From contig CAUDRX010000001.1 of the NCBI GenBank assembly GCA_958451915.1, positions 31,381-95,380 on the forward strand: a stretch of 64,000 nt of DNA, written 5' to 3'. The DNA comes from an uncultured Peptococcaceae bacterium (GTDB lineage: Bacteria; Bacillota; Peptococcia; Peptococcales; Peptococcaceae). Below, piece after piece: positions 9,291 to 32,486 of this stretch. The notes under the pieces are model-generated. The model did no database searches and was not told where the DNA came from. It worked only from the letters and a program-made list of their open reading frames with translations. A program made the translations under genes and the position numbers. Within the stretch, counting starts at the first letter, position 1, and each line of letters opens with the position of its first letter.

Positions 9291-9297
9291 CATGGTC

Positions 9298-11781: not shown

Positions 11782-11792
11782 GGAGGCGCGGC

Positions 11793-12230
11793 ATGCGATT
11801 TCAGAACGCAGTGATGGCGGATTTTGATACCGCCTTTGACTTTATCGAAAAGCTGTGGACCTACAATTCCTATGATCGTGAGGAGATCAGGCATGTCTAC
11901 GCGGAGGTCCTCGCCGACCCTGCGAGCTTCGCTTTCTTTCTCGTGGATGAGGATGGGCATGCTCTCGGCTTCTGCCACGGTGTCTTCTTTAACACCTTCT
12001 GGCTTTCCGGGCAGACCTGCTATCTTTCGAGCCTCATCGTCAGGGAAGGCGAACGCGGCAAAGGCTATGGCCGCGCCCTCATGGATCACGCACGTGATCT
12101 CGCCCGGGCCCGCGGCTGCAAAGGCATCGTCCTCGACAGCGGCCTGCCCCGCACCGGCGCGCACGCGTTTTATGAGCACTATGGCTTTGAGAAGAGCTGC
12201 TACGGCTTCGATTATTATCTGGAGGCCTGA
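11793..12230 (+). CDS. GNAT family N-acetyltransferase
   Basis: AGGAGG precedes ATG 11793. Acetyl-CoA site REGERGKGYGRALMDHARDLA. Confidence 0.8.
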   Translation: MRFQNAVMADFDTAFDFIEKLWTYNSYDREEIRHVYAEVLADPASFAFFLVDEDGHALGFCHGVFFNTFWLSGQTCYLSSLIVREGERGKGYGRALMDHARDLARARGCKGIVLDSGLPRTGAHAFYEHYGFEKSCYGFDYYLEA

Positions 12231-12317
12231 GCGTTTCTCTGGAAACTGGCCGATGATGGTCCGGTGGATATAAAAAAGATGCAGCCTTTGGCGGCTGCGG
12301 ATCAAAACATACAAATG

Positions 12318-12352
12318 AAAAGAGCGCGCCGCATCACGCGGCGCGCTCTTTG
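12318..12352. terminator. bidirectional intrinsic terminator
   Basis: AAAAGAGCGCGCCGC-atcac-GCGGCGCGCTCTTT between convergent GNAT and icd. Confidence 0.8.
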
Positions 12353-12368
12353 ACATTCAGGCAGGGGG

Positions 12369-13580
12369 TTACGCCAGCTTGGCGTCAAGACGAGCGGCGA
12401 TGGCATCGAGGAATTCTTCGCTGGTAACAGCATGCTTGTTCTCGATGGTGGAGAGGCTCATGAGGTCTTTGGTCATGGTGCCGCTTTCGATGGTCTCGAT
12501 GGTGGCCGCCTCCAAAGCATCGGCGTACTTTTGCAGGGCATCGTTGCCGTCCATCTCGCCGCGCTTGCGCAATGCACCGCTCCAGGCGAAGATGGTGGCG
12601 ACAGAGTTGGTGGATGTCGTTTCGCCTTTGAGGTGTTTGTAGTAGTGGCGCTGTACGGTGCCGTGAGCGGCTTCGTATTCGTAGTAGCCCTGTGGGCTCA
12701 CGAGCACGGAGGTCATCATGGCGAGGCTGCCGAAAGCAGTGGCGACAAGGTCGCTCATGACGTCGCCGTCGTAGTTCTTGCAGGCCCAGATGAAGCCGCC
12801 TTCGCTGCGCACGACGCGGGCTACGGCGTCATCGATGAGGGTGTAGAAGTAGGTGATGCCGGCTTCTTCGAAACGGTCCTTGTAGTCGCGGTCGAAGATC
12901 TCCTGGAAGATGTCTTTGAAACGATGGTCATAGATCTTGGAGATGGTGTCCTTGGTCGCGAACCAGACATCCTGTTTCGTGTCGAGTGCGTAGGTGAAGA
13001 CAGCATTGGCGAAGCTGGCGATGGAAGCGTCACGGTTGTGCATGCCCTGGATGACGCCAGGCTCGGTGAAAGTGAAGATCTCTTTTTCTTCCGTGCGGCC
13101 GTCTTCGTAGTCTACTTTCAGGCTGGCTTTGGCTGGACCGTCAACGCGCAGTTCACTGTTCTTGTAGACGTCGCCATAGGCATGACGGGCGACGGTGATC
13201 GGTGCTTTCCAGGTGCGCACGAATGGATGGATGCCATCAACGAGGATCGGTGCGCGGAAGACAGTGCCGTCCAAAAGGGCACGGATGGTGCCGTTCGGGC
13301 TCTTCCACATCTCTTTGAGGTTGTATTCTTCAACGCGGGCAGCGTTTGGCGTGATCGTGGCACATTTGACGCCAACACCGTATTTTTTGATGGCTTCGGC
13401 TGCGTCTGCAGTCACCTGGTCGCCAGTAGCGTCGCGGTGTTCGAGGCCGAGGTCGTAGTATTCAGTCTTGAGATCGACATAAGGGAGGATCAGTTTGTCT
13501 TTGATCCAGGCCCAGAGGATGCGTGTCATTTCGTCGCCGTCCATTTCGACGAGCGGCGTGGTCATTTTGATTTTTTCCAT
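12369..13580 (-). CDS. icd: NADP-dependent isocitrate dehydrogenase (homodimeric, eukaryote-like type)
   Basis: N-terminus [47 protein letters not shown] and full-length similarity to the about 400-aa IDH class. Confidence 0.92.
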
Positions 13581-13726
13581 CGATACAGACTCCTTTGTTG
13601 ATTTTTAGATTTCGTTTCTATTTTACTTTAATTGTGTCCGGCTGTGCAACAAGTCTTTCATTATTTTTGAAAGGTGCTATAATCAGAAGTAGACAAACGC
13701 TTCAGCCATCGCAAGTGGAGAAGGGA

Positions 13727-14992
13727 ATGATCATCACTATGAAGAAACATCCAAAAGCCGTCGCACTCTGCCTTTCTGCGGCCCTTTTGTCGATGAGTCT
13801 GGTGCCGTCGCTGGCCGCAGAGAACGCCGGGCATGTTGATGAACCAGGCGTCGGGGACCCTGCACAGGGCCAGGAGACGCCAGACCAGACCGAACAGCCA
13901 GAAAAAGAACCGGAAGTTACCACAACCACTCCGGCATATAACGACAGCCATCAGGAGGCCGACGGCCTGACCGTTGTCAGCGGTATCCTCCTGGTCAATA
14001 AGAACCACCCATTGCCATCGGATTACGCGCCCGACTATACCAATGGCGCCGGCCAGAGCACGAGCCTCCAGGGCGAAGCCCAGGCTGCGGCAGAGGCGTT
14101 TCTGGCGGCAGCCAACGCCCAGGGCAACAGCATGTATGTGCTCTCCGGTTACCGCAGCTATGACGTGCAGGCGAGTCTTTTTGCCAGCTACGCTGCGGCC
14201 AATGGCGAGGAGAAGGCCAATACCTTTTCGGCCCGTGCCGGTCAGAGCGAGCATCAGACGGGCCTTGCCTTTGATGTGGGCGACGCCGCTCACAGCGGCT
14301 ACAATCTGCAGACATCCATTGACCAGTTTCCTGGTGTGCAGTGGATGATGCAGCACTGCGCCGAATATGGTTTCATCCTGCGTTATCCGCAGGGCAAGGA
14401 AGCCATCACCGGTTACCAGTACGAGCCGTGGCATTACCGCTATGTTGGCGTAGAGGCGGCGCAGGCCATCACATCCAGCGGCCTTACCCTTGAGGAATAC
14501 CTCGGCGATGTGCAGACGGAGGATTCCGGCGGCCGTCAGCTCGCCATCGGACGCAGCACCAATTCCCTGTGTATTGATGGCGATTATTCCAAAGCGGCCA
14601 GCTATAACATCGCCGGCAACAACTATTTCCGTCTGCGCGACCTGGCGACAATGCTTCGCGGCACCCCGGCGGAATTTGACGTCGGCTACGCAGATGGCCG
14701 TATCACCATCGAGAGCAGGACCACGCTTTCCGGAACGCCGACCCTGATCGAACTTTCAACCAACGACATCGCCGTGCCGAACACCATGGCTGTGCTCTGT
14801 GACGGAGAATACGTTGTACCAAAGGCCTATAACATCAATGGCTTTACCTATTTCAAACTGCGCGATCTGGGACAGTTGCTCGGTTTTGTCGTGGATTGGG
14901 ACAGCGCGGCCCAGAGTATGGTCATCGAGACCGGCGGCAATGCTGCTATCACAAGCCTGCTCGCACCAGTCATCTTTGATGCAGAGGCATGA
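13727..14992 (+). CDS. M15B (VanY-type) D-alanyl-D-alanine carboxypeptidase with C-terminal stalk-domain repeats
   Basis: Signal peptide; SGYRSYDVQASLF, SEHQTGLAFDV and EPWHYRYVG motifs. C-terminal IAGNNYFRLRDLATML and INGFTYFKLRDLGQLLG repeats. Start chosen at ATG 13727 after GGAG. Confidence 0.85.
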   Translation: MIITMKKHPKAVALCLSAALLSMSLVPSLAAENAGHVDEPGVGDPAQGQETPDQTEQPEKEPEVTTTTPAYNDSHQEADGLTVVSGILLVNKNHPLPSDYAPDYTNGAGQSTSLQGEAQAAAEAFLAAANAQGNSMYVLSGYRSYDVQASLFASYAAANGEEKANTFSARAGQSEHQTGLAFDVGDAAHSGYNLQTSIDQFPGVQWMMQHCAEYGFILRYPQGKEAITGYQYEPWHYRYVGVEAAQAITSSGLTLEEYLGDVQTEDSGGRQLAIGRSTNSLCIDGDYSKAASYNIAGNNYFRLRDLATMLRGTPAEFDVGYADGRITIESRTTLSGTPTLIELSTNDIAVPNTMAVLCDGEYVVPKAYNINGFTYFKLRDLGQLLGFVVDWDSAAQSMVIETGGNAAITSLLAPVIFDAEA

Positions 14993-19783: not shown

Positions 19784-21049
19784 ATGTTAGACATCAAACT
19801 TATGCGCAAAGAGCCGGAACGCGTCGCCAAAGCTGTTGGCCGCCGCGGCAAAGAGATCGATATGCAGCCATTTTTGACTGCCGACGAAAAACATCGCGAA
19901 GTCATCGCTCAGATCGAAGCCTTGCAGAGCCAGCGCAACGCCAAGAGTAAAGAAGTCGGCATGCGCAAGCGCAACGGCGAGAGCGCAGATGATCTGATGG
20001 CCGAAGTATCTGCCATCAACGAACAGATCAAGGCCCTCGACGCCGACAAAGACGCCCTCGAAAAGGAAGTGCGTGATTTCGTTGTCAGCATCCCTAACAT
20101 GCCAGCCGACGATATCCCGGACGGCGGCGAAGACGACTACCGTGTCGAACGTGTCTGGGGTGAACCACGCCAGTTCAGTTTTGAACCAAAGGCCCATTGG
20201 GATCTCGGCGTTGACCTCGACATCCTCGATTTTGACCGCGCCGCCAAAGTCACCGGCAGCCGTTTCACTTTCTACAAAGGCCTTGCTGCCCGTCTTGAAC
20301 GTGCCCTCGTTTCTTTCATGATCGACATGCACACCGACAAGCACGGCTACACCGAGCTCATCCCACCATACATGACCAACACCGCTTCCGATTTCGGCAC
20401 CGGCCAGCTGCCTAAGTTCGCAGAAGACATGTTCCATCTCGAGAACACCGACTACTACCTCATCCCAACCGCTGAGGTTCCTGTTACCAACTATCATCGT
20501 GACGAGATCCTCTCCGAAAAGGACCTGCCTGTGAAGTATTGTGCCTTCAGCCCATGTTTCCGCAGCGAAGCCGGCAGTGCTGGCCGTGATACCCGCGGCA
20601 TCATCCGTCAGCACGAGTTCCACAAAGTCGAGATGGTCAAGCTCGCCCATCCGGACCACAGCTGGGAAGAGCTGGAAAGCCTCACCCAGAATGCTGAGGA
20701 TATCCTGCAGGCTCTGAATCTCCCATACCGCGTGATCTGCCTCTCCGCTGGCGACATCGGTTTCAGCTCCGCTAAGACTTATGACCTTGAAGTCTGGCTG
20801 CCAAGCTACGGCAAATACCGTGAGATCTCCAGCTGCTCCAACTTCCTCGATTTCCAGAGCCGCCGCGCCAACCTGCGTTTCCGTGATGCCGATGGCAAAG
20901 TGCGTTATGTCCACACATTGAACGGTTCCGGTCTGGCTGTAGGCCGCACTCTGGCAGCCATCCTCGAAAACTACCAGAACGAAGACGGCAGCGTCACCAT
21001 CCCAGAAGCCCTCGTTCCTTACATGCATGGTTACACCGAGATCCGCTAA
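19784..21049 (+). CDS. serS: serine--tRNA ligase
   Basis: [15 protein letters not shown]-terminal coiled-coil arm and class II motifs ([39 protein letters not shown]). Confidence 0.95.
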
Positions 21050-21061
21050 GGTTGTGCGCCA

Positions 21062-22456
21062 ATGACAAGAGATTTAGATTTTTCACGGATCCACCGGTTC
21101 ATCTTTGATGACCTTCACCTGCTGCTCGACGTTAACAGCGGCTCTGTCCATGTCATCGACGAGACCGCCTGGGCCTTCCTTGATGCCCTCGAACAAGGCC
21201 AGAGCTGGGAGGATGCCATCCGTACCACTGCCGCCGTCTATGGCGAAGAGGATGCCCGCGATGTCGCTGAAGGCGTGAGTGAACTCATAGAGGAAGGGAT
21301 GCTCTTTTCTGACATTGATTTCAGTGAGTTTACCCCACACACTGAACCTATCGTCAAAGCCATGTGCCTGCACATGGCCCACGACTGCAACCTGCGCTGC
21401 GGCTACTGCTTCGCCGACAGCGGCGCCTACGGCGGCGGCCGCTCCCTGATGAGCCTGGAGGTCGCCAAAAAAGCCATCGACTTCCTCATGGAAGCTTCCA
21501 GGCACCGCACCCACGTTGAAGTAGACCTCTTCGGCGGTGAGCCGCTCCTCAACCTCGATGTCTGCAAGGCCGTCGTCGAATATGGCCACCAGCGTGCCGC
21601 TGCGCTCGGCAAAGTGCTCAAAGTCACCCTCACCACCAACGGCGTCCTTCTTGATGACGCTGTCGGCAAATGGGTCAACGACGAGCACATGGACGCCGTT
21701 CTCTCCCTTGACGGCCGCAAAGAGATCCACGACAACATGCGCCGTTTCGTCGGCGGGCAGCCAAGCTACCAGACCTGCGTGGACCACTTCCAGAAGTTTG
21801 TCGCCACCCGCGGCCAGCAGTGGTACTACGTGCGTGGTACATACACCCACTACAACCCGGATTTTGCCGCCGACGTCATCCACATGGCCGATGACCTCGG
21901 CTTTAAGGAGATCAGCATGGAGCCCGTCGTTGCACCGGCCGACATGCCATATGCCCTCACCGAGGACGACAAGCCGATCATCCTTGAAAATTACAACATC
22001 CTCGCCCGCCATTACCTCCAGCGTTGGCGCGAGGGCAAGGGCTACAATTTCTTCCATTTCAATGTCGACTTCGCCGGCGGCCCATGCCTGCCAAAGCGCC
22101 TCTCCGGCTGCGGCAGCGGTCACGACTACCTCGCCGTCAGCCCGGAAGGGGACCTCTATCCTTGCCATCAGTTCGTCGGCGAGGAAGATTACAAGATGGG
22201 CACCGTTTTCACCGGCATCGAACGTCCGGAGATCGCTGAACGCTTCCAGAAAGCCAACGTCCTCACCAAGCCAACCTGCATGGACTGCTGGGCGCGCTTT
22301 TTCTGCAGCGGCGGCTGCCACGCCAACAACATCCGCTACGGTGGTTCCATCAATGAGCCTTACGCTTATGGCTGTGACCTCCAGAAGAAACGCATCGAAG
22401 CGGCCATCTATGTGCAGACCGTGAAGCTTTTAGAGAGCGAAGGGAGCGAAGACTGA
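21062..22456 (+). CDS. radical SAM/SPASM peptide maturase, SCIFF-maturase (CteB) type
   Basis: CLHMAHDCNLRCGYCFA (CxxxCxxC), an N-terminal RRE-like region LLLDVNSGSVHVIDE, and SPASM Cys motifs CGSGHDYLAVSPEGDLYPCHQF and CWARFFCSGGCHANN. Near end-to-end resemblance to C. thermocellum CteB as I recall it. Confidence 0.8.
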   Translation: MTRDLDFSRIHRFIFDDLHLLLDVNSGSVHVIDETAWAFLDALEQGQSWEDAIRTTAAVYGEEDARDVAEGVSELIEEGMLFSDIDFSEFTPHTEPIVKAMCLHMAHDCNLRCGYCFADSGAYGGGRSLMSLEVAKKAIDFLMEASRHRTHVEVDLFGGEPLLNLDVCKAVVEYGHQRAAALGKVLKVTLTTNGVLLDDAVGKWVNDEHMDAVLSLDGRKEIHDNMRRFVGGQPSYQTCVDHFQKFVATRGQQWYYVRGTYTHYNPDFAADVIHMADDLGFKEISMEPVVAPADMPYALTEDDKPIILENYNILARHYLQRWREGKGYNFFHFNVDFAGGPCLPKRLSGCGSGHDYLAVSPEGDLYPCHQFVGEEDYKMGTVFTGIERPEIAERFQKANVLTKPTCMDCWARFFCSGGCHANNIRYGGSINEPYAYGCDLQKKRIEAAIYVQTVKLLESEGSED

Positions 22457-23322
22457 TGCAGCCACTCCTGCCACCATTTGCCGCACCTGCCGATTCGCCG
22501 CGCGTTGCTTTTCAGGGCATCGAAGGTTCCTTCAGTGACGGCGCCTGCATCAAGGTCTTTGGCCCGGATGTGCACCGTAAAGGCATGTCCCACTTTCAGT
22601 ATGTCGTCGATGCCGTCGTCGAAGGTGCGTATGATTATGGCGTCCTGCCAATCGAGAATTCTTCCACCGGCAGCATCAACGACGTCTATGACCTGCTCAA
22701 CACCAAACCCTGCTATATCGTCGCTGAGACCGCCCTCGAGATCACCCAGAACCTGCTGGCCGTTCCCGGTACCAGACTTGAAGACATCAAGTATGTCTAT
22801 TCCCATCCTCAGGGCCTCGGTCAGAGTCAGCGCTTTCTCATGAAGCACGGCATTGAGCCCCGCCCATACGCCGACACCGCCATGAGCGCCCGCTACATTG
22901 CAGAGACCCGTCCCGCCGACGGCGCCGCCATCGCTTCCCAGCAGGCAGCCGAAGTCTACGGGTTGGAGATCATCGTGCCGCATGTCAATTTCAACTACTC
23001 CAATATCACCCGTTTTGTCGTCATCCGCAACCAGCCGGAGTGGCATGAAGGCCAGAACAAGGTCAGCATCGTTTTCAAGACGCCGCATCGCCCGGGGGCG
23101 CTCTTTGAAGCCCTGCGCTTCTTCGCAGACGGCCACTATGACATGAGCCGCATCGAATCGCGTCCTGTCATCGGTAAGCCCTGGGAATACAGCTTCTACG
23201 TCGACCTTCTCGGCCGCTGGGACGATGAGGCTTTCGTCGAGTGCCTGCGCCAGGTGCGCGAGACCACCGTCGATTTCCGTGTTCTTGGCACTTACCAGGC
23301 GGCAGAACAGAACATTCTTTGA
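22456..23322 (+). CDS. pheA: prephenate dehydratase (PDT plus ACT domains)
   Basis: VAFQGIEGSFSDGAC, ENSSTGSINDVYDLL and ESRPVIGKPWEYSFYVD motifs. The start overlaps the preceding stop (TGATG). Confidence 0.9.
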   Translation: MQPLLPPFAAPADSPRVAFQGIEGSFSDGACIKVFGPDVHRKGMSHFQYVVDAVVEGAYDYGVLPIENSSTGSINDVYDLLNTKPCYIVAETALEITQNLLAVPGTRLEDIKYVYSHPQGLGQSQRFLMKHGIEPRPYADTAMSARYIAETRPADGAAIASQQAAEVYGLEIIVPHVNFNYSNITRFVVIRNQPEWHEGQNKVSIVFKTPHRPGALFEALRFFADGHYDMSRIESRPVIGKPWEYSFYVDLLGRWDDEAFVECLRQVRETTVDFRVLGTYQAAEQNIL

Positions 23323-23341
23323 ACGAAAGGAGACCTGACCC

Positions 23342-24277
23342 ATGAACGATCTCTTTTCTCAGATCACCGGCGTTGCCGAGGTGCGTTTTGACGAGCCCCT
23401 CGCCCGTCACACCACCTTTGGGATCGGCGGTCCTGCCGATGTCATGGTCTTTCCGGAGACCCCAGCGGCCCTCGCTGAAGTCGTGCGTACCGCCCGCGAG
23501 AACGGCCTCGACTGGCTCGTGCTCGGGCGTGGCAGCAACATGCTCGTCGCCGACAGCGGCATCCGTGGTGTCGTTATTGCCACCGAGCGCCTCCAGACCC
23601 TCCGCGTCGAAGCGAGCCGCGTCACCGCAAGCTGCGGCTGGTCCCTCATCAACGTCAGCAAAGCCACAGCCGAGCTCGGTCTCAGCGGTCTTGAATTTGC
23701 CAGCGGCATTCCCGGCAGCATCGGCGGTGCAGCCTACATGAACGCCGGCGCCTATGATGGTGAGATGAAGGACGTCATCACGAGCGTCACCGTTCTGGAC
23801 GAGAACGGCGCTGTCCGGGAGATCCCGGCCAGCGAGATGCGTTTCAGCTATCGCCACAGCCGTCTCAAGGACGAACCCCTCATCTGTCTCGCTGTGACCA
23901 TGCAGCTCGCGTTCGCCGACAAGCGCGAGATCCTCGACAAGATCCGCGACCTCACCGAGCGCCGCACCAGCCGCCAGCCGCTTGAGCTTGCAAGTGCCGG
24001 CTCCACCTTCAAGCGGCCCGCCGGTCACTACGCCGGCCCTCTCATCATCGAGGCCGGCCTCCAGGGCCACCAGATCGGCGGCGCTCAGGTCTCGACCAAG
24101 CACGCCGGCTTCGTCGTCAACACCGGCGGCGCCACCGCCGATGACGTCATCCGGCTCATCCACCACATCCAGCAGACCGTCCTCGACAAGGACCACGTCC
24201 GCCTCGAGACCGAAGTCCGCTTCATCGGCGACTGGGCCGATCACCCCCTCTACCCAGCGATCATGAAAGCCGAATAA
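23342..24277 (+). CDS. murB: UDP-N-acetylenolpyruvoylglucosamine reductase
   Basis: LARHTTFGIGGPADVMVFP, GRGSNMLVAD and AGSTFKRP motifs. Confidence 0.93.
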   Translation: MNDLFSQITGVAEVRFDEPLARHTTFGIGGPADVMVFPETPAALAEVVRTARENGLDWLVLGRGSNMLVADSGIRGVVIATERLQTLRVEASRVTASCGWSLINVSKATAELGLSGLEFASGIPGSIGGAAYMNAGAYDGEMKDVITSVTVLDENGAVREIPASEMRFSYRHSRLKDEPLICLAVTMQLAFADKREILDKIRDLTERRTSRQPLELASAGSTFKRPAGHYAGPLIIEAGLQGHQIGGAQVSTKHAGFVVNTGGATADDVIRLIHHIQQTVLDKDHVRLETEVRFIGDWADHPLYPAIMKAE

Positions 24278-24288
24278 GGAAACAAATA

Positions 24289-24334
24289 AACCTCTCTGAC
24301 CGTCCCAAATGGGATGGATGCAGAGAGGTTTTTG
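24289..24334 (+). terminator. intrinsic terminator after murB
   Basis: AACCTCTCTG..CAGAGAGGTTTTT with an inner helix CGTCCCA-aat-GGGATGG. Confidence 0.75.
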
Positions 24335-24368
24335 CGTTTGTGGGAGGATGAAAAGTATTGTATATCTC

Positions 24369-24397
24369 TTGAAATACGCCCTTTATCACTATATAAT
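24369..24397 (+). promoter_or_regulatory. sigma-70-type promoter of the regulator-kinase operon
   Basis: TTGAAA (24369-24374), 17 nt, TATAAT (24392-24397). Confidence 0.6.
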
Positions 24398-24455
24398 GAT
24401 ATCAAACACAAACCTTTGATGGCGCATCAGTGTAAATAAAAAGGGGGGGATCGCC

Positions 24456-25181
24456 ATGAAGATCGCGATCTGCGATGATGAGATCCTATATTGCGAGGCC
24501 ATGGAGACGATGCTCCATGCTCACGGCATCGAGCCGGATGTCTATCATTCCGGCAAAGACCTGCTTCATGCCTGCCTGGAGCAAGGGCGGCGCTATGACG
24601 GCGTCTTTCTCGACATGGAGATGGACGGACTGAACGGCTTTGAGACGGCAAATGCCCTGCATGCCCATGACCCACATATGCAGATCGTCTTTGTCACCAG
24701 CCACGAAAAATACATGATCGATAGTTTTCGTTGTGATCCGCTGCGTTTCATCGTCAAGAACAGGGACGGTGCACTTGTGCCAGAGGCACGTTTTGAAGAA
24801 GCCCTCGAGGCTATTGGCGCCGTCACCGCCGTGAAGCGCCAGGCCATCCACCTGACGGTCGATCGCGGCGATGAAGTCCTGCTCTACGACGATGAGATCG
24901 CCTATTGCGAGAGCAGAGGTCACAACATTCTATTTTACTGCACCGACGGGCAGATGTATAGCTGGCGTGGTACCATGGCCCAGCTGCTCAACAAGCTCCC
25001 GCCAGACTATTTCGTGCAATGCCACCGATCTTTCGTCGTAAATCTTGCCCATGTATGTAAGGTCAGCGAGAAAAATGGTGAGATTTCTCTTGCCACTGGG
25101 GTAGTACCGATAGGGCCGTCGTTTAAGGCGGATTTTCTTGTTGCTCGGATTCGTTTTATGAAAGAGAGATTGCATGTATGA
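24456..25181 (+). CDS. LytTR-family response regulator (AgrA-like)
   Basis: REC domain MKIAICDDE..VFLDMEMDGLNGFE and a C-terminal LytTR domain (YFVQCHRSFVVNLAHV). Confidence 0.9.
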   Translation: MKIAICDDEILYCEAMETMLHAHGIEPDVYHSGKDLLHACLEQGRRYDGVFLDMEMDGLNGFETANALHAHDPHMQIVFVTSHEKYMIDSFRCDPLRFIVKNRDGALVPEARFEEALEAIGAVTAVKRQAIHLTVDRGDEVLLYDDEIAYCESRGHNILFYCTDGQMYSWRGTMAQLLNKLPPDYFVQCHRSFVVNLAHVCKVSEKNGEISLATGVVPIGPSFKADFLVARIRFMKERLHV

Positions 25182-26467
25182 GTGCATATGAATTTGCTGA
25201 TCTTATCACACCGCTCGTTGAGGCGGTAATGTTCTTTATGTTGTTCGAAGCCTTTCTATCGCGGCGGAAGAAGCTGAAAACCTGGCACTATATCGTGGGC
25301 ATGATTGCGCTGGCTGGGATGATCAGTATTTGTAATAGAGTGTTCAGTTATACCTTTTTGAATATTCTTGGCTTGGTCCTATCAGCTTTTCTTCTGTCTT
25401 TCCTGTATCGAGGGGAATTCGGGTTTCGCTTGATCGCCAGTGTTTCTGGTATCCTGATCAGTGGCGTTTTAGAGATCTTTGTGATGTATCTGATCACGGT
25501 CATATTTGACATATCTGTTAGCGAAGCGATTTATGATCAAGAATATCGCTTACTGGGGATCATAGGGTCAAAAATAAGTGGATTGGCCTGTTGTAATGCC
25601 ATCCGGATAAAGAGTTCTGTGAAAAAGCTGTCTCAAAGCAACACCTATTGGCTTCTATTTTTCTTGCTGTTCTTGTCAAGCTTACTAACAATATCGTTGC
25701 TCTTTATTATGAGTTACGAGATCAATGATGAACGTTATAATAGCATTGCGGTACTTTGTGCGATGGGGCTGCTTTTCAGCACTTTCTTTGCGCTCTATAT
25801 CTATGAAAGGATCGTAAAACAAAGCGAAGCGATACGTAGTCAGGAACAGTATGAACAGCATTTAAGATCCCAGCTCAAGCATCTGGACGACATCATTGCC
25901 GGACAAAATGAATTGCGCCGGTTCAAGCATGATCTTTCCAATCAGCTGGCGGTCGTTCGTGGTTACTTTGAGCGTCAGGACAATGAAGCCGGAGAGCGTT
26001 ATCTGGATGAGTTGGATCAACGCTTTTTAAAAGGGCATGCTGTCGTCAATACAGGAAATACGGCTTTGGATGCGATCATCAGCACCAAGCAGGCATTGGC
26101 TGAGAGCAAAGGCATTGTTTTTCAGATGACCATCCAGATCGCCGAGCATTTTCCGATCGAGCCCGTTGATGCCTGCATGATCTTTGGCAATGCGCTCGAC
26201 AATGCCATCGAAGCCTGTGAACGGCTGGACGGCGGAGAGAAGCATATCACCCTCACCCTCATCCAGCAGGACGAGACCCTCTTCTGCAAGATCGTCAACA
26301 GCGCCCCGCCCGGCCAGCATCACGACCTTCAGACCAGCAAGCGTGACAAAGACGCGCATGGCCTGGGCCTGTTGAACATTAAGGACGCCCTGGCGCGCTA
26401 TGACAGTGGCGCTGTGATAGAATGGGAAAACGGTATTTTCTCATTGTCTTTTCTGATCGATCTATAA
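25178..26467 (+). CDS. AgrC-like sensor histidine kinase (multi-TM sensor plus GHKL ATPase)
   Basis: 6-7 N-terminal TM helices; H-box RFKHDLSNQLAVV; N-box FGNALDNAIEA; G-box HGLGLLN. 4-nt overlap with the regulator gene. Confidence 0.88.
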   Translation: MSAYEFADLITPLVEAVMFFMLFEAFLSRRKKLKTWHYIVGMIALAGMISICNRVFSYTFLNILGLVLSAFLLSFLYRGEFGFRLIASVSGILISGVLEIFVMYLITVIFDISVSEAIYDQEYRLLGIIGSKISGLACCNAIRIKSSVKKLSQSNTYWLLFFLLFLSSLLTISLLFIMSYEINDERYNSIAVLCAMGLLFSTFFALYIYERIVKQSEAIRSQEQYEQHLRSQLKHLDDIIAGQNELRRFKHDLSNQLAVVRGYFERQDNEAGERYLDELDQRFLKGHAVVNTGNTALDAIISTKQALAESKGIVFQMTIQIAEHFPIEPVDACMIFGNALDNAIEACERLDGGEKHITLTLIQQDETLFCKIVNSAPPGQHHDLQTSKRDKDAHGLGLLNIKDALARYDSGAVIEWENGIFSLSFLIDL

Positions 26468-26551
26468 CAAACCAGACAGTGTACGGAACATCGTATTATC
26501 ATTGCGATGATCTGTATGCTGTTTTTTTTTGTAAAAATTAAATAAAAGATT

Positions 26552-26616
26552 ATTCGTGTCTCTAACTCGGCTGTTCGTGCCACTTTTCCAGGATCGGCCC
26601 TTTTTTGTGCTATGAT
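26552..26616 (+). promoter_or_regulatory. LytTR-type operator (two direct repeats 21 bp apart) plus extended -10; agrBD promoter
   Basis: ATTCGTGTCTCTAACTCGGCTGTTCGTGCCACTTTTCC, with TTCGTGTC at 26553 and TTCGTGCC at 26574; 25 nt further on is TGcTATGAT (26608-26616). Confidence 0.7.
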
Positions 26617-26640
26617 CTTTGAAAAGAGGAGGTGAAGAAG

Positions 26641-27225
26641 ATGAAGAAAGTGATCGATCATTTTGAGCGACGCATGATCGCGGGCAATGTGATCTCACAG
26701 AATGAAACGGCCGTTGTCCGCTATGGCTTGGAAGTGTTCTTCATCTCGTTTCTTGAACTGGCCGCAATCTTTGTGCTTGCTGCTTTTGTTGGGAATCTAG
26801 CGAGCACTGTATGTTTTTTCTTAGCATTTATCCCACTCAGATTGGTTGCCGGTGGTTATCATGCATCAACACGCCTGAGATGTTTCATCCTCTCATTGGC
26901 TGTATACGGAGTGTTCACTGTGATGATGCAGATGATCCCGACATCATGGTATATAGGAGTGGTTTATAGCTGCCTGATCGTGACAGGTTATATCATATGG
27001 CGATTTTCACCGAGCATTCATCATAACCGTCGATCTATCGATTATGACCGTCAGTTTTATCGTAGGATCAGTTTAAAGATCTGGTTTTTTGAATGCAGCA
27101 TAATAGTCGCTTTGCAGGTATTTTTGCCAATATCTGCTGTCGGGGTGGCAATGGCATTAGGCATGTTCTCTGAAGCATTGGCGCTCCTGGTGGTAGTTTG
27201 GGAGAAATATATATCACCGGTATGA
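26641..27225 (+). CDS. agrB: AgrB-family autoinducer-processing membrane peptidase
   Basis: AGGAGG lies 8 nt before ATG 26641. IPLRLVAGGYHASTRLRCFILS has the His/Cys pair at i/i+7; 4-5 TM helices. Confidence 0.85.
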   Translation: MKKVIDHFERRMIAGNVISQNETAVVRYGLEVFFISFLELAAIFVLAAFVGNLASTVCFFLAFIPLRLVAGGYHASTRLRCFILSLAVYGVFTVMMQMIPTSWYIGVVYSCLIVTGYIIWRFSPSIHHNRRSIDYDRQFYRRISLKIWFFECSIIVALQVFLPISAVGVAMALGMFSEALALLVVVWEKYISPV

Positions 27226-27248
27226 AAAACAGAAGGGAGGAAAGAAAA

Positions 27249-27425
27249 ATGAAAAAATGGTATGAAGCGATCATGTCTCGATATTATATGGCATGGAAGT
27301 GGATAGCACTAATGTTTGCGGCTTTGGCAGTAAATACTGTATGTACCTTGCCATACTATGAACCGGAGCAGCCATCAGAGCTGGCTGGTCTCAAACGATT
27401 TGGATATTTCCATAAAAGGGGATAA
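27249..27425 (+). CDS. agrD: AgrD-like cyclic-lactone autoinducer peptide precursor (58 aa)
   Basis: GGGAGGAAAG precedes ATG 27249. Sequence MKKWYEAIMSRYYMAWKWIALMFAALAVNTVCTLPYYEPEQPSELAGLKRFGYFHKRG: amphipathic leader, single core Cys and an acidic P-x-E-L tail. Lies immediately 3' of agrB. Confidence 0.75.
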   Translation: MKKWYEAIMSRYYMAWKWIALMFAALAVNTVCTLPYYEPEQPSELAGLKRFGYFHKRG

Positions 27426-27484
27426 AAACAGGAAAAAAACTGCACCTGTTTATGGGAGGCAGCGTGATGAGGTCATGTTGAGAA

Positions 27485-27549
27485 ATTCGTGCCTCTAACT
27501 CGACTGTCCGTGCCACTTTCCGAAAAAAGTGGGATTTTGATGATATACT
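27485..27549 (+). promoter_or_regulatory. second copy of the LytTR-type operator plus extended -10 (effector promoter)
   Basis: ATTCGTGCCTCTAACTCGACTGTCCGTGCCACTTTCC, with TTCGTGCC at 27486 and TCCGTGCC at 27507; the same 25-nt spacing to TGaTATACT (27541-27549). Confidence 0.7.
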
Positions 27550-27818
27550 GTACGAAAACCGGGAAAACTATTGAAGATCAATTAAAGGCAGTGGCGACGA
27601 CCATCTTGCTCACAATGGCGGTGCCGCGCTCAGCATATGACTTGTTGAGTGCGTTCTGCATACCGTATTGTTGCGATATGATCCAGAAGGGAGGTGGACG
27701 CTAAAGTTCATCCAGCCTGTTGCCCGTCGCAGTTGTGATCACCGAAGTTTTTTTGAACTCGTACCTGCAAGTTGAGTGTACAAAGCAGATACACTATAAA
27801 TCGTCTGCAAATCTAAAC

Positions 27819-28766
27819 ATGAAAAGACGATTAACATTATTAACATTGGTGCTTTTTTCTGTCAGCACATTGATGTCCATGCCGGGACTCGCGGCGGAAT
27901 ATGATGGGTACGTAGATGCCGCCGGTAATCAGATCACTCCAGAGATCGAACCGCTTACAGATGAAGAGATCCAGAGAAATGCTGACTATGACAATATGGT
28001 TGAGACGGTTCGCACTGCTTACGAAGCATATCTCGATGGAGAGATCACCATCGATCAGTTGCAACAGATTGAAGATGCAAGTTATTTCTCAGTTTACCCA
28101 GAGGAAAAAGATAATCCGCTGGCTTCCATGAAGACAAACCCAGAGCGCAAAGAAATGGTTGAAGCGATGAAAGCCGATCGACAGGATTCGTCTCAAAAGG
28201 TCAGCTTTGAGATCCAGCCGTTCAATCTTGGGGATGGGACCGCGAAATATCTGCCAATGCCTTATGAAATGCAGGCAAACACTTGGTATTGTGGACCAGC
28301 GACGGCGGTCAATATCGTAAATGGTTACAATGGATACAGCCGCATGACCCAAAGTCAGGCAGCCAGTCTCTTAGGGACGACTTCTTCCAGTGGGACAAAT
28401 TTCAGCAGTAACTGGTACAATGTATTGAATACATCTACCATGGGGAAAACTTACACACGTGCCCAGGGGTATTCTGATTGGGCTGGCGATCTGGCGAACA
28501 AATGCATTGGCACGATCTGGAATGGGCGCGGGGTTGCGCTGAATGTCGTTATGACGCCGTATACCACTTACTTGCCAGGATACAGTGCTGCGTCTGGTAA
28601 TGTATACCACTACGTTGCCGCATATGGCTTTGAAAGCTATGATCCTTCACGAAGAAAGATCTGTTATATCGACCCATATGCTGAGTATTTGGGCATTTCT
28701 GGTGCTCAGAAAGTAACCTTCCAGCAAATGGCTTTAGCAACACAGACGCACGGGATCATCTATTGA
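27819..28766 (+). CDS. secreted papain-fold cysteine peptidase (C39-like), probable zymogen
   Basis: Signal peptide MKRRLTLLTLVLFSVSTLMSMPGLAAE; acidic pro-region of about 150 aa; nucleophile context NTWYCGPATAVNIV and His context NVYHYVAAYGF. No clear Shine-Dalgarno sequence precedes ATG 27819. Confidence 0.7.
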   Translation: MKRRLTLLTLVLFSVSTLMSMPGLAAEYDGYVDAAGNQITPEIEPLTDEEIQRNADYDNMVETVRTAYEAYLDGEITIDQLQQIEDASYFSVYPEEKDNPLASMKTNPERKEMVEAMKADRQDSSQKVSFEIQPFNLGDGTAKYLPMPYEMQANTWYCGPATAVNIVNGYNGYSRMTQSQAASLLGTTSSSGTNFSSNWYNVLNTSTMGKTYTRAQGYSDWAGDLANKCIGTIWNGRGVALNVVMTPYTTYLPGYSAASGNVYHYVAAYGFESYDPSRRKICYIDPYAEYLGISGAQKVTFQQMALATQTHGIIY

Positions 28767-28795
28767 TCTGAGTTGTCAATGACACGATAAATTAA

Positions 28796-28832
28796 GCAGA
28801 AAACACAGCACCGCTCATGCTGTGTTTTCTGC
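28796..28832 (+). other. strong hairpin between the peptidase gene and the next gene (weak terminator or processing site)
   Basis: GCAGAAAACACAGCA-ccgctca-TGCTGTGTTTTCTGC, a 15-bp stem with no trailing T-run, followed directly by AGGAGG. Confidence 0.5.
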
Positions 28833-28853
28833 GTTCGTAAAGGAGGCGTGGTT

Positions 28854-30458
28854 ATGAAAACAACGTTACGACATTTGGGTCTGTCCGGTGGGCTGGCGAT
28901 TTTGGTGATGCTGGCTTCACCGTGCATGGCAGATGCAGCCGTGCTGAATCTCAACGGACAGGATATCGATGCAGAGGCATCCGGAGACATGGTGATCCGG
29001 GATGGTGTGACCATGGTATCCGAGGATATTTTGCGAGATGAAATGTATCTGACATTGGAAAAGGACAAAAAAAGTTTCAAACTTGAGAATGTGTACAAAG
29101 ATTTCGTTCTTGAAGGAGCAGTCGATTCCGATACATTGTCTCTGAATGGCGAAGAAAAGAAGATGTCGGTAGCGGCACAATCTGTAGATGGAAAACTGTT
29201 TGTGCCGTTGCGTCCGGTCATTGAATTGTTCGGTGATATTGGCTGGGTGGGTGCTGATCAGACGGTATATGCGCGCTACGATTATAATGATCAGGTGGAG
29301 ATCCCACTTGTGCAAGCCTCTGATACCCCGATCACGTATGAAGTGCCGCTGAATTCCAGTGTTGCAGCGGAGAACGGTGAGACGCCGATCCGTGTGACAG
29401 ATGATGGAACGCTCATTGAAAAACGCGATGCGAATAACAATCTCATTGCTGTGCAGATCGGGGACAAACCATTGATCCAGCCGCAAAATGAAGGCAACAT
29501 CCTGCGTTGGGGCAGCTATGAAGTGGAAGACGATTATCTGTATTGGATGGAGCAACCAGATCCTTCTCAGGAGATCACCGACGATCAACAATGGTATCTC
29601 TACATCCAAGAACGCAAAGATGGTGCAAAGCCAGAATGCATCGATCATGGTTCTTACAATGAAGTACTGAGTGTATCGCCGACCGGCGGGATGCTCAACA
29701 ATTGCGATTTTAAAAATGGAAACATCATCTGGCTGCGTGGCGACAAAAGTAGTGGAAAATTTGAAGCGCGTCTTTATCAGCGTGATACCGGAGAAATAAC
29801 AACGCTGGACAGCCTGCCGTTTGATGGGCGTGTCTTTACGCAAGTGACCATGGAAGTGTCCCTTGGTGAACACGATGCCTTTTGGACGCGTGCATATTTC
29901 ATGGAATCCATGCGCGAATACGGCACCATGAAGCGCATGCACCTGGAAACCGGAGAGATCGAAGAATTTTCACAAGGCTATAATCTGCTCAATCCATTTG
30001 TGATCGGAGACTATTTGGTCATCCGAGTGAAGCCGGAAGGGAACAATTTCGTGCCGGATCCAGATAAATTGGGCACCTATATCAGTGGCGAACTTTGGGT
30101 CTATGATCTTAAAAAAGATGAATGGTCGTTCAAAGTAGACAATGATCTGGCCATGATCGGTGAAAAAAATGTCATCAGTACGCCAGTGATATTGGATGAT
30201 ACACATATCACCGTTCGAACTGACAGCTCCTATGGATACAGCATGCCGATCATTGACCTGGCAAACGGCACGATGCATGCCACAGCCAATGAAAACAACG
30301 AACCGCTCATGTTCCTGCCATATGGTCTCGTGGATGAAACAACGACCGTTGGCGATATGCAGTCGATGGGCAAAGATGGTTCCTGTATGGCAACGTTCCA
30401 AACCAGGATCGATGGTACGATCACGCCAAGCTATGCGCCAGTGTATTTTGAATGGTAG
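28854..30458 (+). CDS. secreted protein: N-terminal stalk (copper-amine-oxidase-N-like) domain plus beta-propeller-like region
   Basis: AGGAGG lies 7 nt before ATG 28854. Signal peptide; VIRDGVTMVSEDILRDEMYL and VDGKLFVPLRPVIELFGDIGW. The remainder shows repetitive beta-strand-rich sequence. Confidence 0.7.
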   Translation: MKTTLRHLGLSGGLAILVMLASPCMADAAVLNLNGQDIDAEASGDMVIRDGVTMVSEDILRDEMYLTLEKDKKSFKLENVYKDFVLEGAVDSDTLSLNGEEKKMSVAAQSVDGKLFVPLRPVIELFGDIGWVGADQTVYARYDYNDQVEIPLVQASDTPITYEVPLNSSVAAENGETPIRVTDDGTLIEKRDANNNLIAVQIGDKPLIQPQNEGNILRWGSYEVEDDYLYWMEQPDPSQEITDDQQWYLYIQERKDGAKPECIDHGSYNEVLSVSPTGGMLNNCDFKNGNIIWLRGDKSSGKFEARLYQRDTGEITTLDSLPFDGRVFTQVTMEVSLGEHDAFWTRAYFMESMREYGTMKRMHLETGEIEEFSQGYNLLNPFVIGDYLVIRVKPEGNNFVPDPDKLGTYISGELWVYDLKKDEWSFKVDNDLAMIGEKNVISTPVILDDTHITVRTDSSYGYSMPIIDLANGTMHATANENNEPLMFLPYGLVDETTTVGDMQSMGKDGSCMATFQTRIDGTITPSYAPVYFEW

Positions 30459-30482
30459 GGTTACGACTGAGACAACACGCCC

Positions 30483-30510
30483 AAGCGCGGCATTTCTGCC
30501 GCGCTTTTTC
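30483..30510 (+). terminator. intrinsic terminator
   Basis: AAGCGCGGCA-tttc-TGCCGCGCTT followed by TTTC. Confidence 0.8.
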
Positions 30511-30542
30511 TCATTCGCCGCAAACCTTCACGATGTCTTTAC

Positions 30543-30578
30543 AAACCGCCTTGCTTGGGCGGTTTTTCTATTTTTTTT
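30543..30578 (+). terminator. second tandem terminator
   Basis: AAACCGCC-ttgcttg-GGCGGTTTTT followed by a further T8 run. Confidence 0.65.
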
Positions 30579-30629
30579 CGGGTGTGCGTGTTACAATAGG
30601 GACAATGTCATTTTGAAAGGAAGGATCGT

Positions 30630-32486
30630 ATGAAAGTACGACTGCCATATAAACGCTGCGGGCTGGGGGTGAATGTGCTCCTGGCGCTGGCGCTGGCGTG
30701 CGTGGTGACGCTGGCGGTGGTGATCCTGCAGCCGAACGACGTGCGCGACACGCTGGCGGTGTTCACGGCGCGGCCGATCGCGGCGGTGTGGAACGTGGTG
30801 CCGGTGTTCCTCTTGATCCTGGCAGGGATGTTCCTCTTTAACAACGTTTTCCTGTCCACGGCGCTGGTGGGGGCGGTGTGCCTGGTCTTTTCGCTGATCA
30901 ACCGGCTGAAGATCGAGATCCGCGATGAGCCTTTGCAGTTCACGGACATCGCCCTCTGGCGCGAAGGCAGGGAAGCGGCGAAGAGCTACCACATCGACTG
31001 GCCTGTGGCGCTGGTCGCGGGCGTGGTGCTGGTGGTCGTGGTCTTCCTTGTGCTGGCGGCGTGCCTGGGCATGAAAAAACAGCGCTGGTTTGTGCGCGCA
31101 GGCGGCGTGGTGCTGCCTGTGGTGGTGCTGGCGCTCCTGGTGAACACGGCGATCGCCGACCGCCATGTCTACGACAACATCGAGATCTCCAACAACGCCT
31201 ACATGCCGACGATCTATAACGAGCGCGGCTACATCTACAGTTTCTTCCACTATATCACGACCTACAAGGTCGAAGAGCCGGCCGGCTACGACAAGGCTGA
31301 AGCGGCGGCCTGGGACGAGGCGCAGCCGGTAGCGGGCGAGGCAGCGCCGGTGAACGTGGTCTTCATCCAGAACGAGGCCTTTTCGGACATCAGCGACTGG
31401 GAGGGCTTCGCCTTTGCGGAAGGGGATGACCCGCTGGCGAATTTCCACGCTCTGGCTGAAGAACCCCATGCCCTGAGCGGGCACATCGTTGTGCCGCAGT
31501 TTGCCGGCGGTACGGCCAACACCGAGTTCGACGTGCTCACAGGGATGCAGACGATCCATGCGGCGTCCTCGGCTTTCCGTACAGTACACCACGATGTGGG
31601 TTCGATCTTCCGTGTCTTTAACGCCGACGACTACGCGACCTCGATGTTCCACCCGGGCGAGGCCTGGTTCTACAACCGCGAGAACGTCTATCGCTGGTTC
31701 GGTTCGGAAGAGAACCTCTTCAAGGAGGACCTGCCGGGCCTGGCGGAAGCGGGCGGCTGGGTCCTCGACGATGCTCTGGCAGACCGCATCATCGAGGCGA
31801 TCGACACGGAGACGGCGGACGGCGGGCTGCTCTTCAATGAGAGCGTGACCATCCAGAACCACATGTCCTACACCGCTGATAAATATGGTGTTGGTGTGAC
31901 TTTTGAAGACGTGCCGCTCTCGGTGGAGATGAGCGAAGCCGACCAGGAGATGCTCGACGTTTATATGAAAGGTGTGCGTGATGCCGATGCCATGATCGCG
32001 AAGCTCACAGACACCTACCGCACGAGCGACACGCCGGTGGTCTTTGTCTTCTATGGTGACCATCTGCCATACCTGGGGGACAATCAGAGCGTCTATAAGG
32101 CCCTGGGCAAGGACTTCATCGCCACGGGCACAACGACCGCCGAGAGCCTGGAAGCCTTTGAGACGCCGTATCTCATCTGGGCCAACGACGCTGCAGCAGC
32201 GGCCATCGACTGGGACACTGCAGAGATGCAGCTCCCAGAGACCATGAGCGCCTGCTATCTCGGCGCCAGCGTCCTCGAGCTTGTGGGGCGCGACGGCGAA
32301 GAAGCGTGGTTCAATTATCTCTGCCAGCTGCGCGATCAGTACCCGGTCATGACTGCCGACGCCGTCATGACCGCCGATGGCCAGCTCAGTGCCATCGAGA
32401 GCCTGAGCGCCGAGGCGAAGGCGCCGCTTGAAAAATACTGGCAATGGGCCTATTACCGTCTTGAAGATGACCGCCCGTCCGACTGA
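30630..32486 (+). CDS. LTA synthase (LtaS) family sulfatase-domain membrane protein
   Basis: Five N-terminal TM helices and an extracellular alkaline-phosphatase-superfamily domain (VVFIQNEAFSD, QFAGGTANTEFDVLTGM, FVFYGDHLPYLG). Confidence 0.85.
   Translation: MKVRLPYKRCGLGVNVLLALALACVVTLAVVILQPNDVRDTLAVFTARPIAAVWNVVPVFLLILAGMFLFNNVFLSTALVGAVCLVFSLINRLKIEIRDEPLQFTDIALWREGREAAKSYHIDWPVALVAGVVLVVVVFLVLAACLGMKKQRWFVRAGGVVLPVVVLALLVNTAIADRHVYDNIEISNNAYMPTIYNERGYIYSFFHYITTYKVEEPAGYDKAEAAAWDEAQPVAGEAAPVNVVFIQNEAFSDISDWEGFAFAEGDDPLANFHALAEEPHALSGHIVVPQFAGGTANTEFDVLTGMQTIHAASSAFRTVHHDVGSIFRVFNADDYATSMFHPGEAWFYNRENVYRWFGSEENLFKEDLPGLAEAGGWVLDDALADRIIEAIDTETADGGLLFNESVTIQNHMSYTADKYGVGVTFEDVPLSVEMSEADQEMLDVYMKGVRDADAMIAKLTDTYRTSDTPVVFVFYGDHLPYLGDNQSVYKALGKDFIATGTTTAESLEAFETPYLIWANDAAAAAIDWDTAEMQLPETMSACYLGASVLELVGRDGEEAWFNYLCQLRDQYPVMTADAVMTADGQLSAIESLSAEAKAPLEKYWQWAYYRLEDDRPSD

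Follow-up and report, generated by a model that had tools for sequence, protein, structure and literature searches.

The stretch of DNA analysed here, referred to below as the window, comprises 64,000 nucleotides (nt) of a contig from an uncultured Peptococcaceae bacterium. Between murB (23342-24277) and a gene of the LtaS-like sulfatase family (30630-32486) it contains six + strand open reading frames (ORFs), which are recognisable from their sequence as a complete agr-type peptide quorum-sensing cassette: four family models (LytTR, HATPase_c_5, PF04647 and TIGR04223) score above threshold and the catalytic residues are in place. The genes follow the order A-C-B-D, with a LytTR regulator, an AgrC-like kinase, AgrB and AgrD, followed by a C39_2 peptidase and a protein combining CuAO_N1 with a beta-propeller. 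An earlier note on this DNA had proposed six co-oriented agr genes in a non-canonical order, with separate promoters for the regulator-kinase pair, for agrBD and for the effector. We confirmed the positions and strand of all six genes as well as the agr assignment, and the three promoters hold under computation. The A-C-B-D order is also real; however, it is not unprecedented, given C. difficile agr2, C. acetobutylicum and the regulator-first fsr locus (PMC3754575, PMC5454873). The features of the cassette, with protein lengths in amino acids (aa), are the following:

24369-24397, + strand: sigma-70-type promoter TTGAAA-17-TATAAT serving the regulator-kinase unit (11/12 consensus matches)
24456-25181, + strand: response regulator, 241 aa, with a receiver and a LytTR DNA-binding domain
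25178-26467, + strand: AgrC-like sensor histidine kinase, 429 aa, whose start overlaps the regulator stop codon (ATGA)
26474-26530, + strand: intrinsic terminator behind the kinase gene, formed by a long hairpin and a nine-T run (folding energy dG -29.4 kcal/mol, z = -6.9)
26553-26586, + strand: box 1, a putative LytTR site preceding agrBD, with half-sites TTCGTGTCTC and TTCGTGCCAC 21 bp apart
26641-27225, + strand: AgrB membrane cysteine peptidase/cyclase, 194 aa (PF04647, 112 bits, E=2e-32)
27249-27425, + strand: AgrD, the 58-aa precursor of the pheromone, preceded by a GGAGG ribosome-binding site of its own (TIGR04223 score 23.3 bits, cut-off 19)
27486-27519, + strand: box 2, a putative LytTR site preceding the leader of the peptidase-propeller genes
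27557-27818, + strand: long structured 5' leader of the effector transcript, from a predicted start (minimum free energy -87.4 kcal/mol, z = -3.5)
27819-28766, + strand: secreted papain-like C39_2 cysteine peptidase, 315 aa (PF13529, 39.3 bits, above the Pfam cut-off)
28796-28832, + strand: perfect 15-bp-stem hairpin (inverted repeat) between the peptidase and propeller genes (dG -24.4, z = -6.1)
28854-30458, + strand: secreted propeller protein, 534 aa, with signal peptide, CuAO_N1 (PF07833, 38.7 bits) and beta-propeller
30483-30506 and 30543-30565, + strand: two tandem intrinsic terminators that close the cassette before the LtaS-like gene (terminator scan and folding)

The promoter of the regulator-kinase unit, which the earlier note had read as a plain TTGAAA-17-TATAAT, is 94-98% identical across the alleles of the species (see below). 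It has no LytTR-type repeat upstream, as no significant repeat with a period of 19-23 bp was found in 24278-24455 (175/200 shuffles equal it). In the profile search, the regulator scored 59.2 bits for LytTR and 57.4 bits for Response_reg, with D53 in the motif FLDMEM as putative phospho-acceptor. The kinase is translationally coupled to the regulator and scored 76.7 bits for HATPase_c_5; its polytopic sensor spans residues 1-215, with at least six hydrophobic segments up to residue 210, and the H-box FKHDLSN (H251), the N-box GNALDNAIE and the G-box GLGLLN are all recognised. The terminator at 26474-26530 isolates this unit from agrBD, and an equivalent post-kinase hairpin is found in allele L092 (dG -35.6).

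AgrB carries R67, G72, H74 and C81 at the spacing of R70, G75, H77 and C84 of S. aureus AgrB, residues that are required there and whose roles have been described (PMC10196373). The motif GGYHASTRLRC, conserved in eight homologues, holds the i/i+7 His/Cys pair that had been noted earlier and that we assign to H74/C81. The start of AgrB is most likely ATG 26641 because of the ribosome-binding sites and the lengths of homologues, GTG 26632 falling inside the ribosome-binding site. Outside the alleles of its own species, AgrB is ~35-45% identical to its nearest homologues, and a PDB sequence search with it gave no match. Exact-protein look-ups with the window's MurB and with a 197-aa version of the AgrB ORF gave no match either, the AgrB start being probably mis-set in the latter. 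The agrD gene is a separate ORF and not an in-frame 3' end of the AgrB-type gene. Two models had been suggested for checking it, of which TIGR04223 matched, as it also does for six AgrD homologues from related loci (22.5-31.1 bits), and the Pfam model (PF05931) did not match the 58-aa ORF. The core of the precursor, ...AVNTV-C-TLPY-YEPEQPSEL, follows a pattern conserved across alleles, N-[ST]-x-C-x-x-P-[YFL]-[YF]-E-P-[EK]-Q-P. The pheromone predicted from it is a thiolactone whose ring, CTLPY or CTLPYY, closes on Cys32 and carries a short exocyclic tail.

The same 34-bp box occurs exactly twice in the 64-kb window, the two copies being identical at 31/34 positions, and none of 100 shuffles of the window yielded a match. 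Each box consists of imperfect direct repeats, TTCGTGyCTC + TyCGTGCCAC, with a half-site period of 21 bp, and in each, 27 nt separate the end of the second half-site from an extended -10 element (TGcTATGAT for box 1, with TATGAT at 26611-26616; TGaTATACT for box 2, with TATACT at 27544-27549). Known AgrA and FsrA sites have this architecture, with a pair of direct repeats spaced by about two helical turns immediately upstream of a promoter (PMC4227749, PMC5454873), and AgrA repeats lie upstream of P2 and P3 (PMC4227749). The box upstream of agrB, including its 21-bp period and its distance to the -10 element, is kept in four alleles (window, L092, L095 and L097), and the effector-leader box in three (window, L092 and L097). 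Both promoters thus keep the box in L092 and L097, a result that 0/200 shuffles equalled. The regulator probably binds these putative boxes. The sequence of the window's box was not found within 11 mismatches in L081-L091, and the distant cassettes of other Peptococcaceae have their own, different half-sites with a period of 20-22 bp. Such repeats lie upstream of agrB in L082 and upstream of a 201-aa gene between kinase and agrB in L088, and L090 has a 21-bp-period repeat directly upstream of the effector pair; a crude periodic-repeat test was not significant in L085, L087 and L091.

Proposed circuit and its output genes

We consider it likely that the cassette encodes an agr circuit in three transcription units with fsr-like wiring, with the peptidase-propeller pair as its output and with old, divergent pherotypes. 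This reading builds on the gene content, the catalytic residues, the duplication and conservation of the box, the terminators, the allelic divergence and the synteny, all of which are observed. The plain promoter at 24369 would provide constitutive levels of the LytTR regulator and the AgrC-like kinase in a unit ended by its terminator. From the box-1 promoter, agrBD would be expressed, and AgrB would use H74/C81 to remove the C-terminal tail of AgrD and to cyclise the peptide on Cys32. The exported peptide would activate the kinase, leading to phosphorylation of the regulator, and the phosphorylated regulator would bind the box and raise pheromone production, a positive feedback acting on the signal only. 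Box 2 would drive a long-leader transcript for the secreted pro-peptidase and its propeller partner, an effector operon that would then depend on the regulator.

In the peptidase, a signal peptide (~residues 1-26) and a helical pro-region (48-123) precede a disordered linker and the papain-like domain. Across its family, Q152-x5-C158 and H264 are invariant and D285 nearly so, and the AlphaFold 2 (AF2) model (mean predicted local distance difference test, pLDDT, 77.7) is closest to the solved folds of cathepsins, procathepsins and staphopains, and we presume the enzyme to be active. No solved structure was detectable in a PDB sequence search with the peptidase profile. The full-length architecture is rare, with ~6 clusters among 1.84 billion representatives followed by catalytic-domain-only matches, and a scan of JGI metagenomes with the peptidase retrieved no relatives. 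In L094 (2557-3503), the peptidase gene is split into ORFs of 59 aa and 256 aa, which represents either a frameshift (pseudogene) or an assembly error. Within a 536-aa ORF, the propeller gene most likely starts at ATG 28854. Its product, modelled by AF2 with a mean pLDDT of 88.2, has a propeller fold like those of prolyl oligopeptidases and TolB, and no catalytic domain is recognisable; PADLOC gave no match for the effector pair. The hairpin between the two genes, which is conserved in L085, is not followed by a T-run on the + strand and might act in transcript processing or stability or as a partial terminator.

In all contexts that we examined, the peptidase and propeller genes are direct neighbours, in the order propeller-peptidase in most relatives and reversed in the window lineage and L085. 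They are linked to a LytTR regulator and an AgrC-like kinase in 5/7 distinct contexts (the window site, L082-84, L085, L088/89 and L087). As side observations, L089 carries a second LytTR regulator and HATPase_c_5 kinase (12619-14621) ~1.6 kb downstream of its cassette, which are absent from the otherwise similar L088. In L087, the cultured Peptococcus simiae, the propeller-peptidase pair is followed by two small genes and an AgrA/AgrC-like two-component system (8395-14077), and neither AgrB nor AgrD was detected at this locus.

Several observations weigh against the proposed circuit. The AgrA equivalog model gives the regulator 43 bits against a cut-off of 400, and the AgrC equivalog model gives the kinase 63 bits against a cut-off of 500; as both scores are far under the cut-offs, the two proteins are to be seen as family members and not as orthologues. 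The effector pair is found without nearby agr genes in L090 and L091. In L095 and L081, the effector-leader box has lost exactly one 21-bp unit and retains only the half-site nearest the promoter, which may be a natural down-mutation affecting the output. In the window itself, ~260 nt separate the box-2 promoter from the peptidase ATG, and this leader contains a T-run (~27745-27756) and a promoter-like TTGAGT-17-TATAAA (27771-27799), so that box 2 could drive a separate RNA. Finally, the window lacks, at 27800-27830, a 19-nt segment AAAAGGGATGAGAATAATG that the other alleles (L081, L092, L095 and L097) have flanked by two ATGAAAAG repeats. While the peptidase ORF stays intact, the deletion takes away the Shine-Dalgarno sequence, ATG 27819 being preceded by ...GCAAATCTAAAC, and the output may therefore be weak here. 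An in-frame TTG at 27720 was considered as the peptidase start and rejected, since it would bury the signal peptide and would be out of frame with the 19-nt segment of the other alleles. For comparison of the two forms of the effector-box region, L097 reads CGTGTCGTTTGTGTCGCTAACTCTGTCGTTTGTGCCAC and L095 (~10840-10880; L081 ~200-240) reads CGTGTCGTTTGTGCCAC.

An alternative explanation is that box 2 drives a separate RNAIII-like RNA of ~190 nt ending near 27750, and that the peptidase and propeller genes are transcribed independently from 27771-27799 and are mere neighbours of the circuit. The leader is indeed strongly structured and not conserved as coding sequence, with indels and a frameshift in its small ORF across alleles; close in front of the peptidase gene there are a T7 run and two hexamers resembling a promoter, and S. 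aureus agr uses such an RNA effector (PMC3754575). However, L097 has lost the T-run and the inner promoter-like site with ~53 nt of the leader and yet keeps the box and the peptidase gene. L082 has no second box and carries the pair directly after agrBD, while the periodic repeat of L090 stands directly before the pair. Furthermore, the terminator scan called no terminator at the T-run, Rfam gave no match in 24200-30700, and identity between alleles is low in the 5' half of the leader (52-62%). The 3' part is ~99% identical in 3/4 of the other alleles. No divergent promoter of the RNAIII kind was found, which leaves the leader at 27557-27818 as a candidate RNA only, and we regard a separate RNA with independently transcribed effector genes as unlikely.

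Two further elements of the leader were considered. The small ORF MAVPRSAYDLLSAFCIPYCCDMIQKGGGR was rejected as a second peptide gene: it is without a ribosome-binding site and is largely deleted and frameshifted in L081, L092 and L095, and L097 shows 3 synonymous against 3 non-synonymous changes in it. The motif GAAGGGAGGTGGAC is conserved in the effector leaders of the window (27684-27700) and of the distant cassette L082 (~8265-8280). It is followed by no start codon at a usable distance. It is similar to GAAGGGAGG, which serves the propeller gene of L082 and L091 as ribosome-binding site, and may have been left behind by the swap in peptidase/propeller order or belong to a leader structure.

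The peptidase-propeller pair could also serve pheromone metabolism, either by removing the N-terminal leader of AgrD (the role of MroQ/SpsB in S. aureus) or by degrading foreign pheromones. Linkage of the pair to agr-type genes recurs in several species, and the second AgrD processing step in Clostridia has no assigned enzyme. In addition, prolyl oligopeptidases and peptide macrocyclases have peptide-gating propellers similar to this one, and the AgrD rings contain a conserved Pro. Against this, the pair occurs without agrB or agrD in L087, L090 and L091, and in this species it has its own regulated promoter and is not part of agrBD. The peptidase is moreover 98% conserved where AgrDs differ by 16-37%, which fits a generic effector at least as well. 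We therefore judge a role in pheromone metabolism to be highly improbable.

Allelic divergence, composition and origin of the cassette

For comparison within the species, we used seven metagenome contigs from independent samples that all cover the murB-LtaS site. All seven (7/7) carry the cassette at the same site. The conspecific SerS, rSAM, PheA, MurB and PdxK proteins are 96-99.6% identical to those of the window (MurB being the most divergent of the upstream flank, at ~96-97%) and LtaS 93-94%. Nucleotide identity to the window is ~0.98 until ~24580, falls to 0.51-0.83 through ~27780 and returns to 0.96-0.99 in the peptidase gene. At the protein level, the regulator is 78-84% identical to the window's, the sensor 55% (89% in L094), the kinase catalytic half 77-79%, AgrB 68-82% and AgrD 54-84%; within AgrB, identity between alleles is 77-91% over the N-terminal and 44-72% over the C-terminal half. 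The effector genes form a mosaic of their own, with the peptidase 98% or 90% and the propeller protein 88% or 98% identical to the window's.

Synonymous divergence (dS) between the window and L095 was as follows:

serS, rSAM, pheA and murB: 0.05-0.17; pdxK: 0.14; LtaS: 0.25
regulator: 1.10; whole kinase: 1.31; kinase sensor: 3.6
agrB: 1.03; agrD: 0.68; peptidase: 0.08

The ratio of non-synonymous to synonymous divergence (dN/dS) is below 1 throughout. The earlier note had suspected that the specificity-determining part is foreign or fast-evolving, and a difference of 20-50% across the regulator, the kinase sensor, the agrB 3' half and agrD against flanks of ~98% identity, with dS saturated or nearly so, bears this out. 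As near-saturated dS is combined with dN/dS below 1, the alleles are old or imported and each is under purifying selection, so that they are not merely fast-evolving.

The AgrD cores of the alleles are:

window: NTVCTLPYYEPEQP
L092, L093 and L094: NTVCILPYYEPEQP
L095, L096 and L081: NSACGFPYYEPEQP
L097: NTACGFPYYEPEQP

The sensors fall into clade A (window and L094) and clade B (L092, L095 and L097); within clade B, L092 and L095 have the same sensor, with which that of L097 shares 87% identity. Together with two AgrB/AgrD clades, the sensor clades form the combinations A+alpha, B+alpha and B+beta, of which B+alpha was recovered in two independent samples (L092/L093). An identical sensor B is thus paired with CILPY (L092/L093) and with CGFPY (L095/L096), and sensor A/A' is paired with CTLPY and with CILPY. 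These mosaic combinations indicate that sensor and signal do not strictly co-vary, unlike in staphylococci. The gene order may explain this loose co-variation, with the conserved kinase catalytic domain standing between two variable modules. A bolder and rather doubtful extension is that recombination shuffles the signal independently of the receptor and that B+alpha strains are eavesdroppers or non-self-responders, as they make CILPY and carry the CGFPY-associated sensor. If this were true, the locus would hold a signal/receptor social polymorphism under balancing selection in a human-gut commensal, with the protease-propeller pair as the controlled public good.

The cassette is also compositionally distinct, as had been proposed from hand counts. 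The guanine-plus-cytosine (GC) content of the 6.35-kb cassette segment is 0.467, compared to 0.569 for the rest of the window, and the lowest value among other 6.35-kb stretches of the window is 0.495. The estimate of 58-62% for the kinase C-terminus had to be corrected, the recomputed value of this half being ~0.52-0.58. GC content at third codon positions (GC3) was as follows:

regulator: 0.62; kinase sensor: 0.50; kinase catalytic half: 0.62
agrB: 0.49; agrD: 0.39; peptidase: 0.49; propeller (CuAO) gene: 0.52
flanking genes: 0.67-0.81

Since the drop persists at third codon positions, it is not an amino-acid effect alone. A second low-GC patch (0.42-0.48, ~51-54 kb) corresponds to a 1203-aa ORF (51197-54808) for a large cell-surface protein with a VWA domain and C-terminal SLH repeats. 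That alleles and low GC are artefacts, produced by the amino-acid bias of membrane proteins and by assembly chimeras or a mixture of different species, is largely refuted and extremely improbable: the sensor and AgrB are indeed hydrophobic with T-rich codons and all comparison sequences are metagenome contigs, but GC3 is also low in the soluble secreted proteins (0.49-0.52 vs 0.67-0.81), agr-linked cassettes are AT-richer than their flanks in other hosts too, flanks on the same contigs are 96-99.6% identical to the window, the arrangements recur in independent samples (L092/L093; L095/L096; L094 and one further contig), and dN/dS below 1 in the divergent genes marks all alleles as functional.

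The nearest genomes are metagenome-assembled genomes of uncultured gut Peptococcaceae. In all of them serS-rSAM-pheA-murB is syntenic, and the synteny breaks right after murB, where the sister species have other genes:

L007: LtaS directly after murB, then pdxK; L004 and L008: pdxK
L006 (11000-13800): an uncharacterised low-GC gene and an ISL3 transposase
L009 (11200-15200): a DUF819 gene and two M19 dipeptidase genes

The sister species are thus without the cassette at the murB site, and every conspecific contig examined has it. The idea of an island, put forward in the earlier note, can accordingly hold only between species. In other Peptococcaceae, homologous cassettes occur at unrelated sites, near rnpA, yidC and jag in L082 and elsewhere in L085 and L088. 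Together with the synteny, this suggests that the cassette is an accessory module of the family whose position in this species is lineage-specific. A comparison of the upstream genes (window 19784-24277) with L009 and L002 further shows that identity to L009 drops toward the breakpoint, from SerS (96%) over rSAM (93%) and PheA (84%) to MurB (77%).

No mobility genes or insertion scars were found, in line with the earlier description. Gene calls, profile scans and repeat scans revealed no tRNA, integrase or transposase in the cassette, repeat scans gave no convincing flanking direct repeat at its borders, and plasmid and phage collections contained no match to it. A 22-nt near-repeat (24457-24478 / 30907-30928, 20/22 identical) was considered as an insertion scar and rejected as chance, because neither copy is at the borders and both are coding, one at the start of the regulator gene and the other within the LtaS-like gene.

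Significance and comparison with known systems

Nothing here overturns the current understanding of agr, and every element of the locus has a precedent in split or reversed clostridial agr, in the fsr-gelE-sprE wiring or in staphylococcal pherotypes (PMC3754575, PMC5454873, PMC3673130). The useful specifics are the linked peptidase-propeller output, the defined box and the mosaic pherotypes. Studies of agr have dealt almost entirely with pathogens; the circuit of the window is complete, is apparently autoinducing and belongs to an uncultured Peptococcaceae lineage of the human gut. We found no report of agr in this family in the literature, although coverage was incomplete and this is weak evidence of absence. 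The candidate regulon is clearly delimited, with two promoters sharing one box and a rare output of pro-peptidase and propeller protein. At least four natural alleles with recombined sensor and signal parts offer a natural experiment on pherotype diversity outside staphylococci. The predicted pheromones, with rings CTLPY, CILPY and CGFPY, each possibly extended by the following Tyr, can be synthesised, and the cultured Peptococcus simiae, with its effector pair beside an AgrCA-like two-component system, is a possible experimental entry point.

The wiring is closest to that of fsr in Enterococcus faecalis, where fsrA is constitutive and FsrA sites lie upstream of fsrB and gelE (PMC5454873). As in the fsrA / fsrBDC / gelE-sprE arrangement, the regulator has its own signal-independent promoter, here a predicted one without a LytTR site, the AgrB-type and pheromone genes stand behind a promoter with a LytTR site, and two secreted protease-related genes follow immediately downstream behind a second LytTR site, both sites being putative here (PMC5454873). 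Unlike in fsr, the kinase is co-transcribed with the regulator and not with the signal genes, and AgrD is encoded by a separate gene, whereas in fsr it forms the C-terminal part of FsrB, in frame. A Cys thiolactone is predicted as pheromone in place of a Ser lactone, and among the outputs the metalloprotease and serine protease of fsr are replaced by a papain-like cysteine peptidase and a propeller that is non-catalytic. Deep allelic pherotypes, as found here, are not known for fsr.

With S. aureus agrBDCA, the locus shares the same four protein families, the same required AgrB residues and direct-repeat LytTR sites, here putative, upstream of the promoter that is autoinduced there and would be so here. 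The half-site found here is TTCGTGCC. It differs from the S. aureus half-site consensus, which is ACAGTTAAG. Staphopains, which are secreted papain-like proteases, are part of the S. aureus agr output. The order A-C-B-D in three transcription units contrasts with the single RNAII operon of S. aureus, and no divergent RNAIII is recognised here (no Rfam match, as described above). S. aureus specificity groups I-IV differ in a hypervariable agrB 3' half, agrD and the kinase sensor (PMC3673130), and variability is concentrated in the same parts here. Unlike in S. aureus, the regulator (78-84%) and the kinase catalytic half (77-79%) diverge too, and the two hypervariable segments are split by the kinase catalytic domain and occur in mosaic combinations.

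Among clostridial systems (also class Clostridia), C. difficile agr2 is arranged as agrACDB and reported as a single transcript, and C. acetobutylicum has agrBD and agrCA in two transcription units (PMC3754575). As in clostridial agr, the regulator and kinase come first here, reversed with respect to S. aureus, and the genes lie in separate units. Clostridial AgrD has a tail of the '...EP..P.EL' type, as does the AgrD described here. Unlike in C. difficile agr2, B precedes D, and no linked protease-propeller pair has been reported there.

The peptidase resembles C39_2/papain-like proteases in its Q-x5-C ... H ... D arrangement, its papain-like fold and its procathepsin-type helical pro-region. 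In contrast to bacteriocin-leader C39 peptidases, it stands alone, carries a signal peptide and a pro-region, and is not fused to an ABC transporter; the cassette contains no ABC transporter, and no double-glycine substrate lies nearby. What further distinguishes it from other C39_2 peptidases is that it is always paired with a CuAO_N1-propeller gene.

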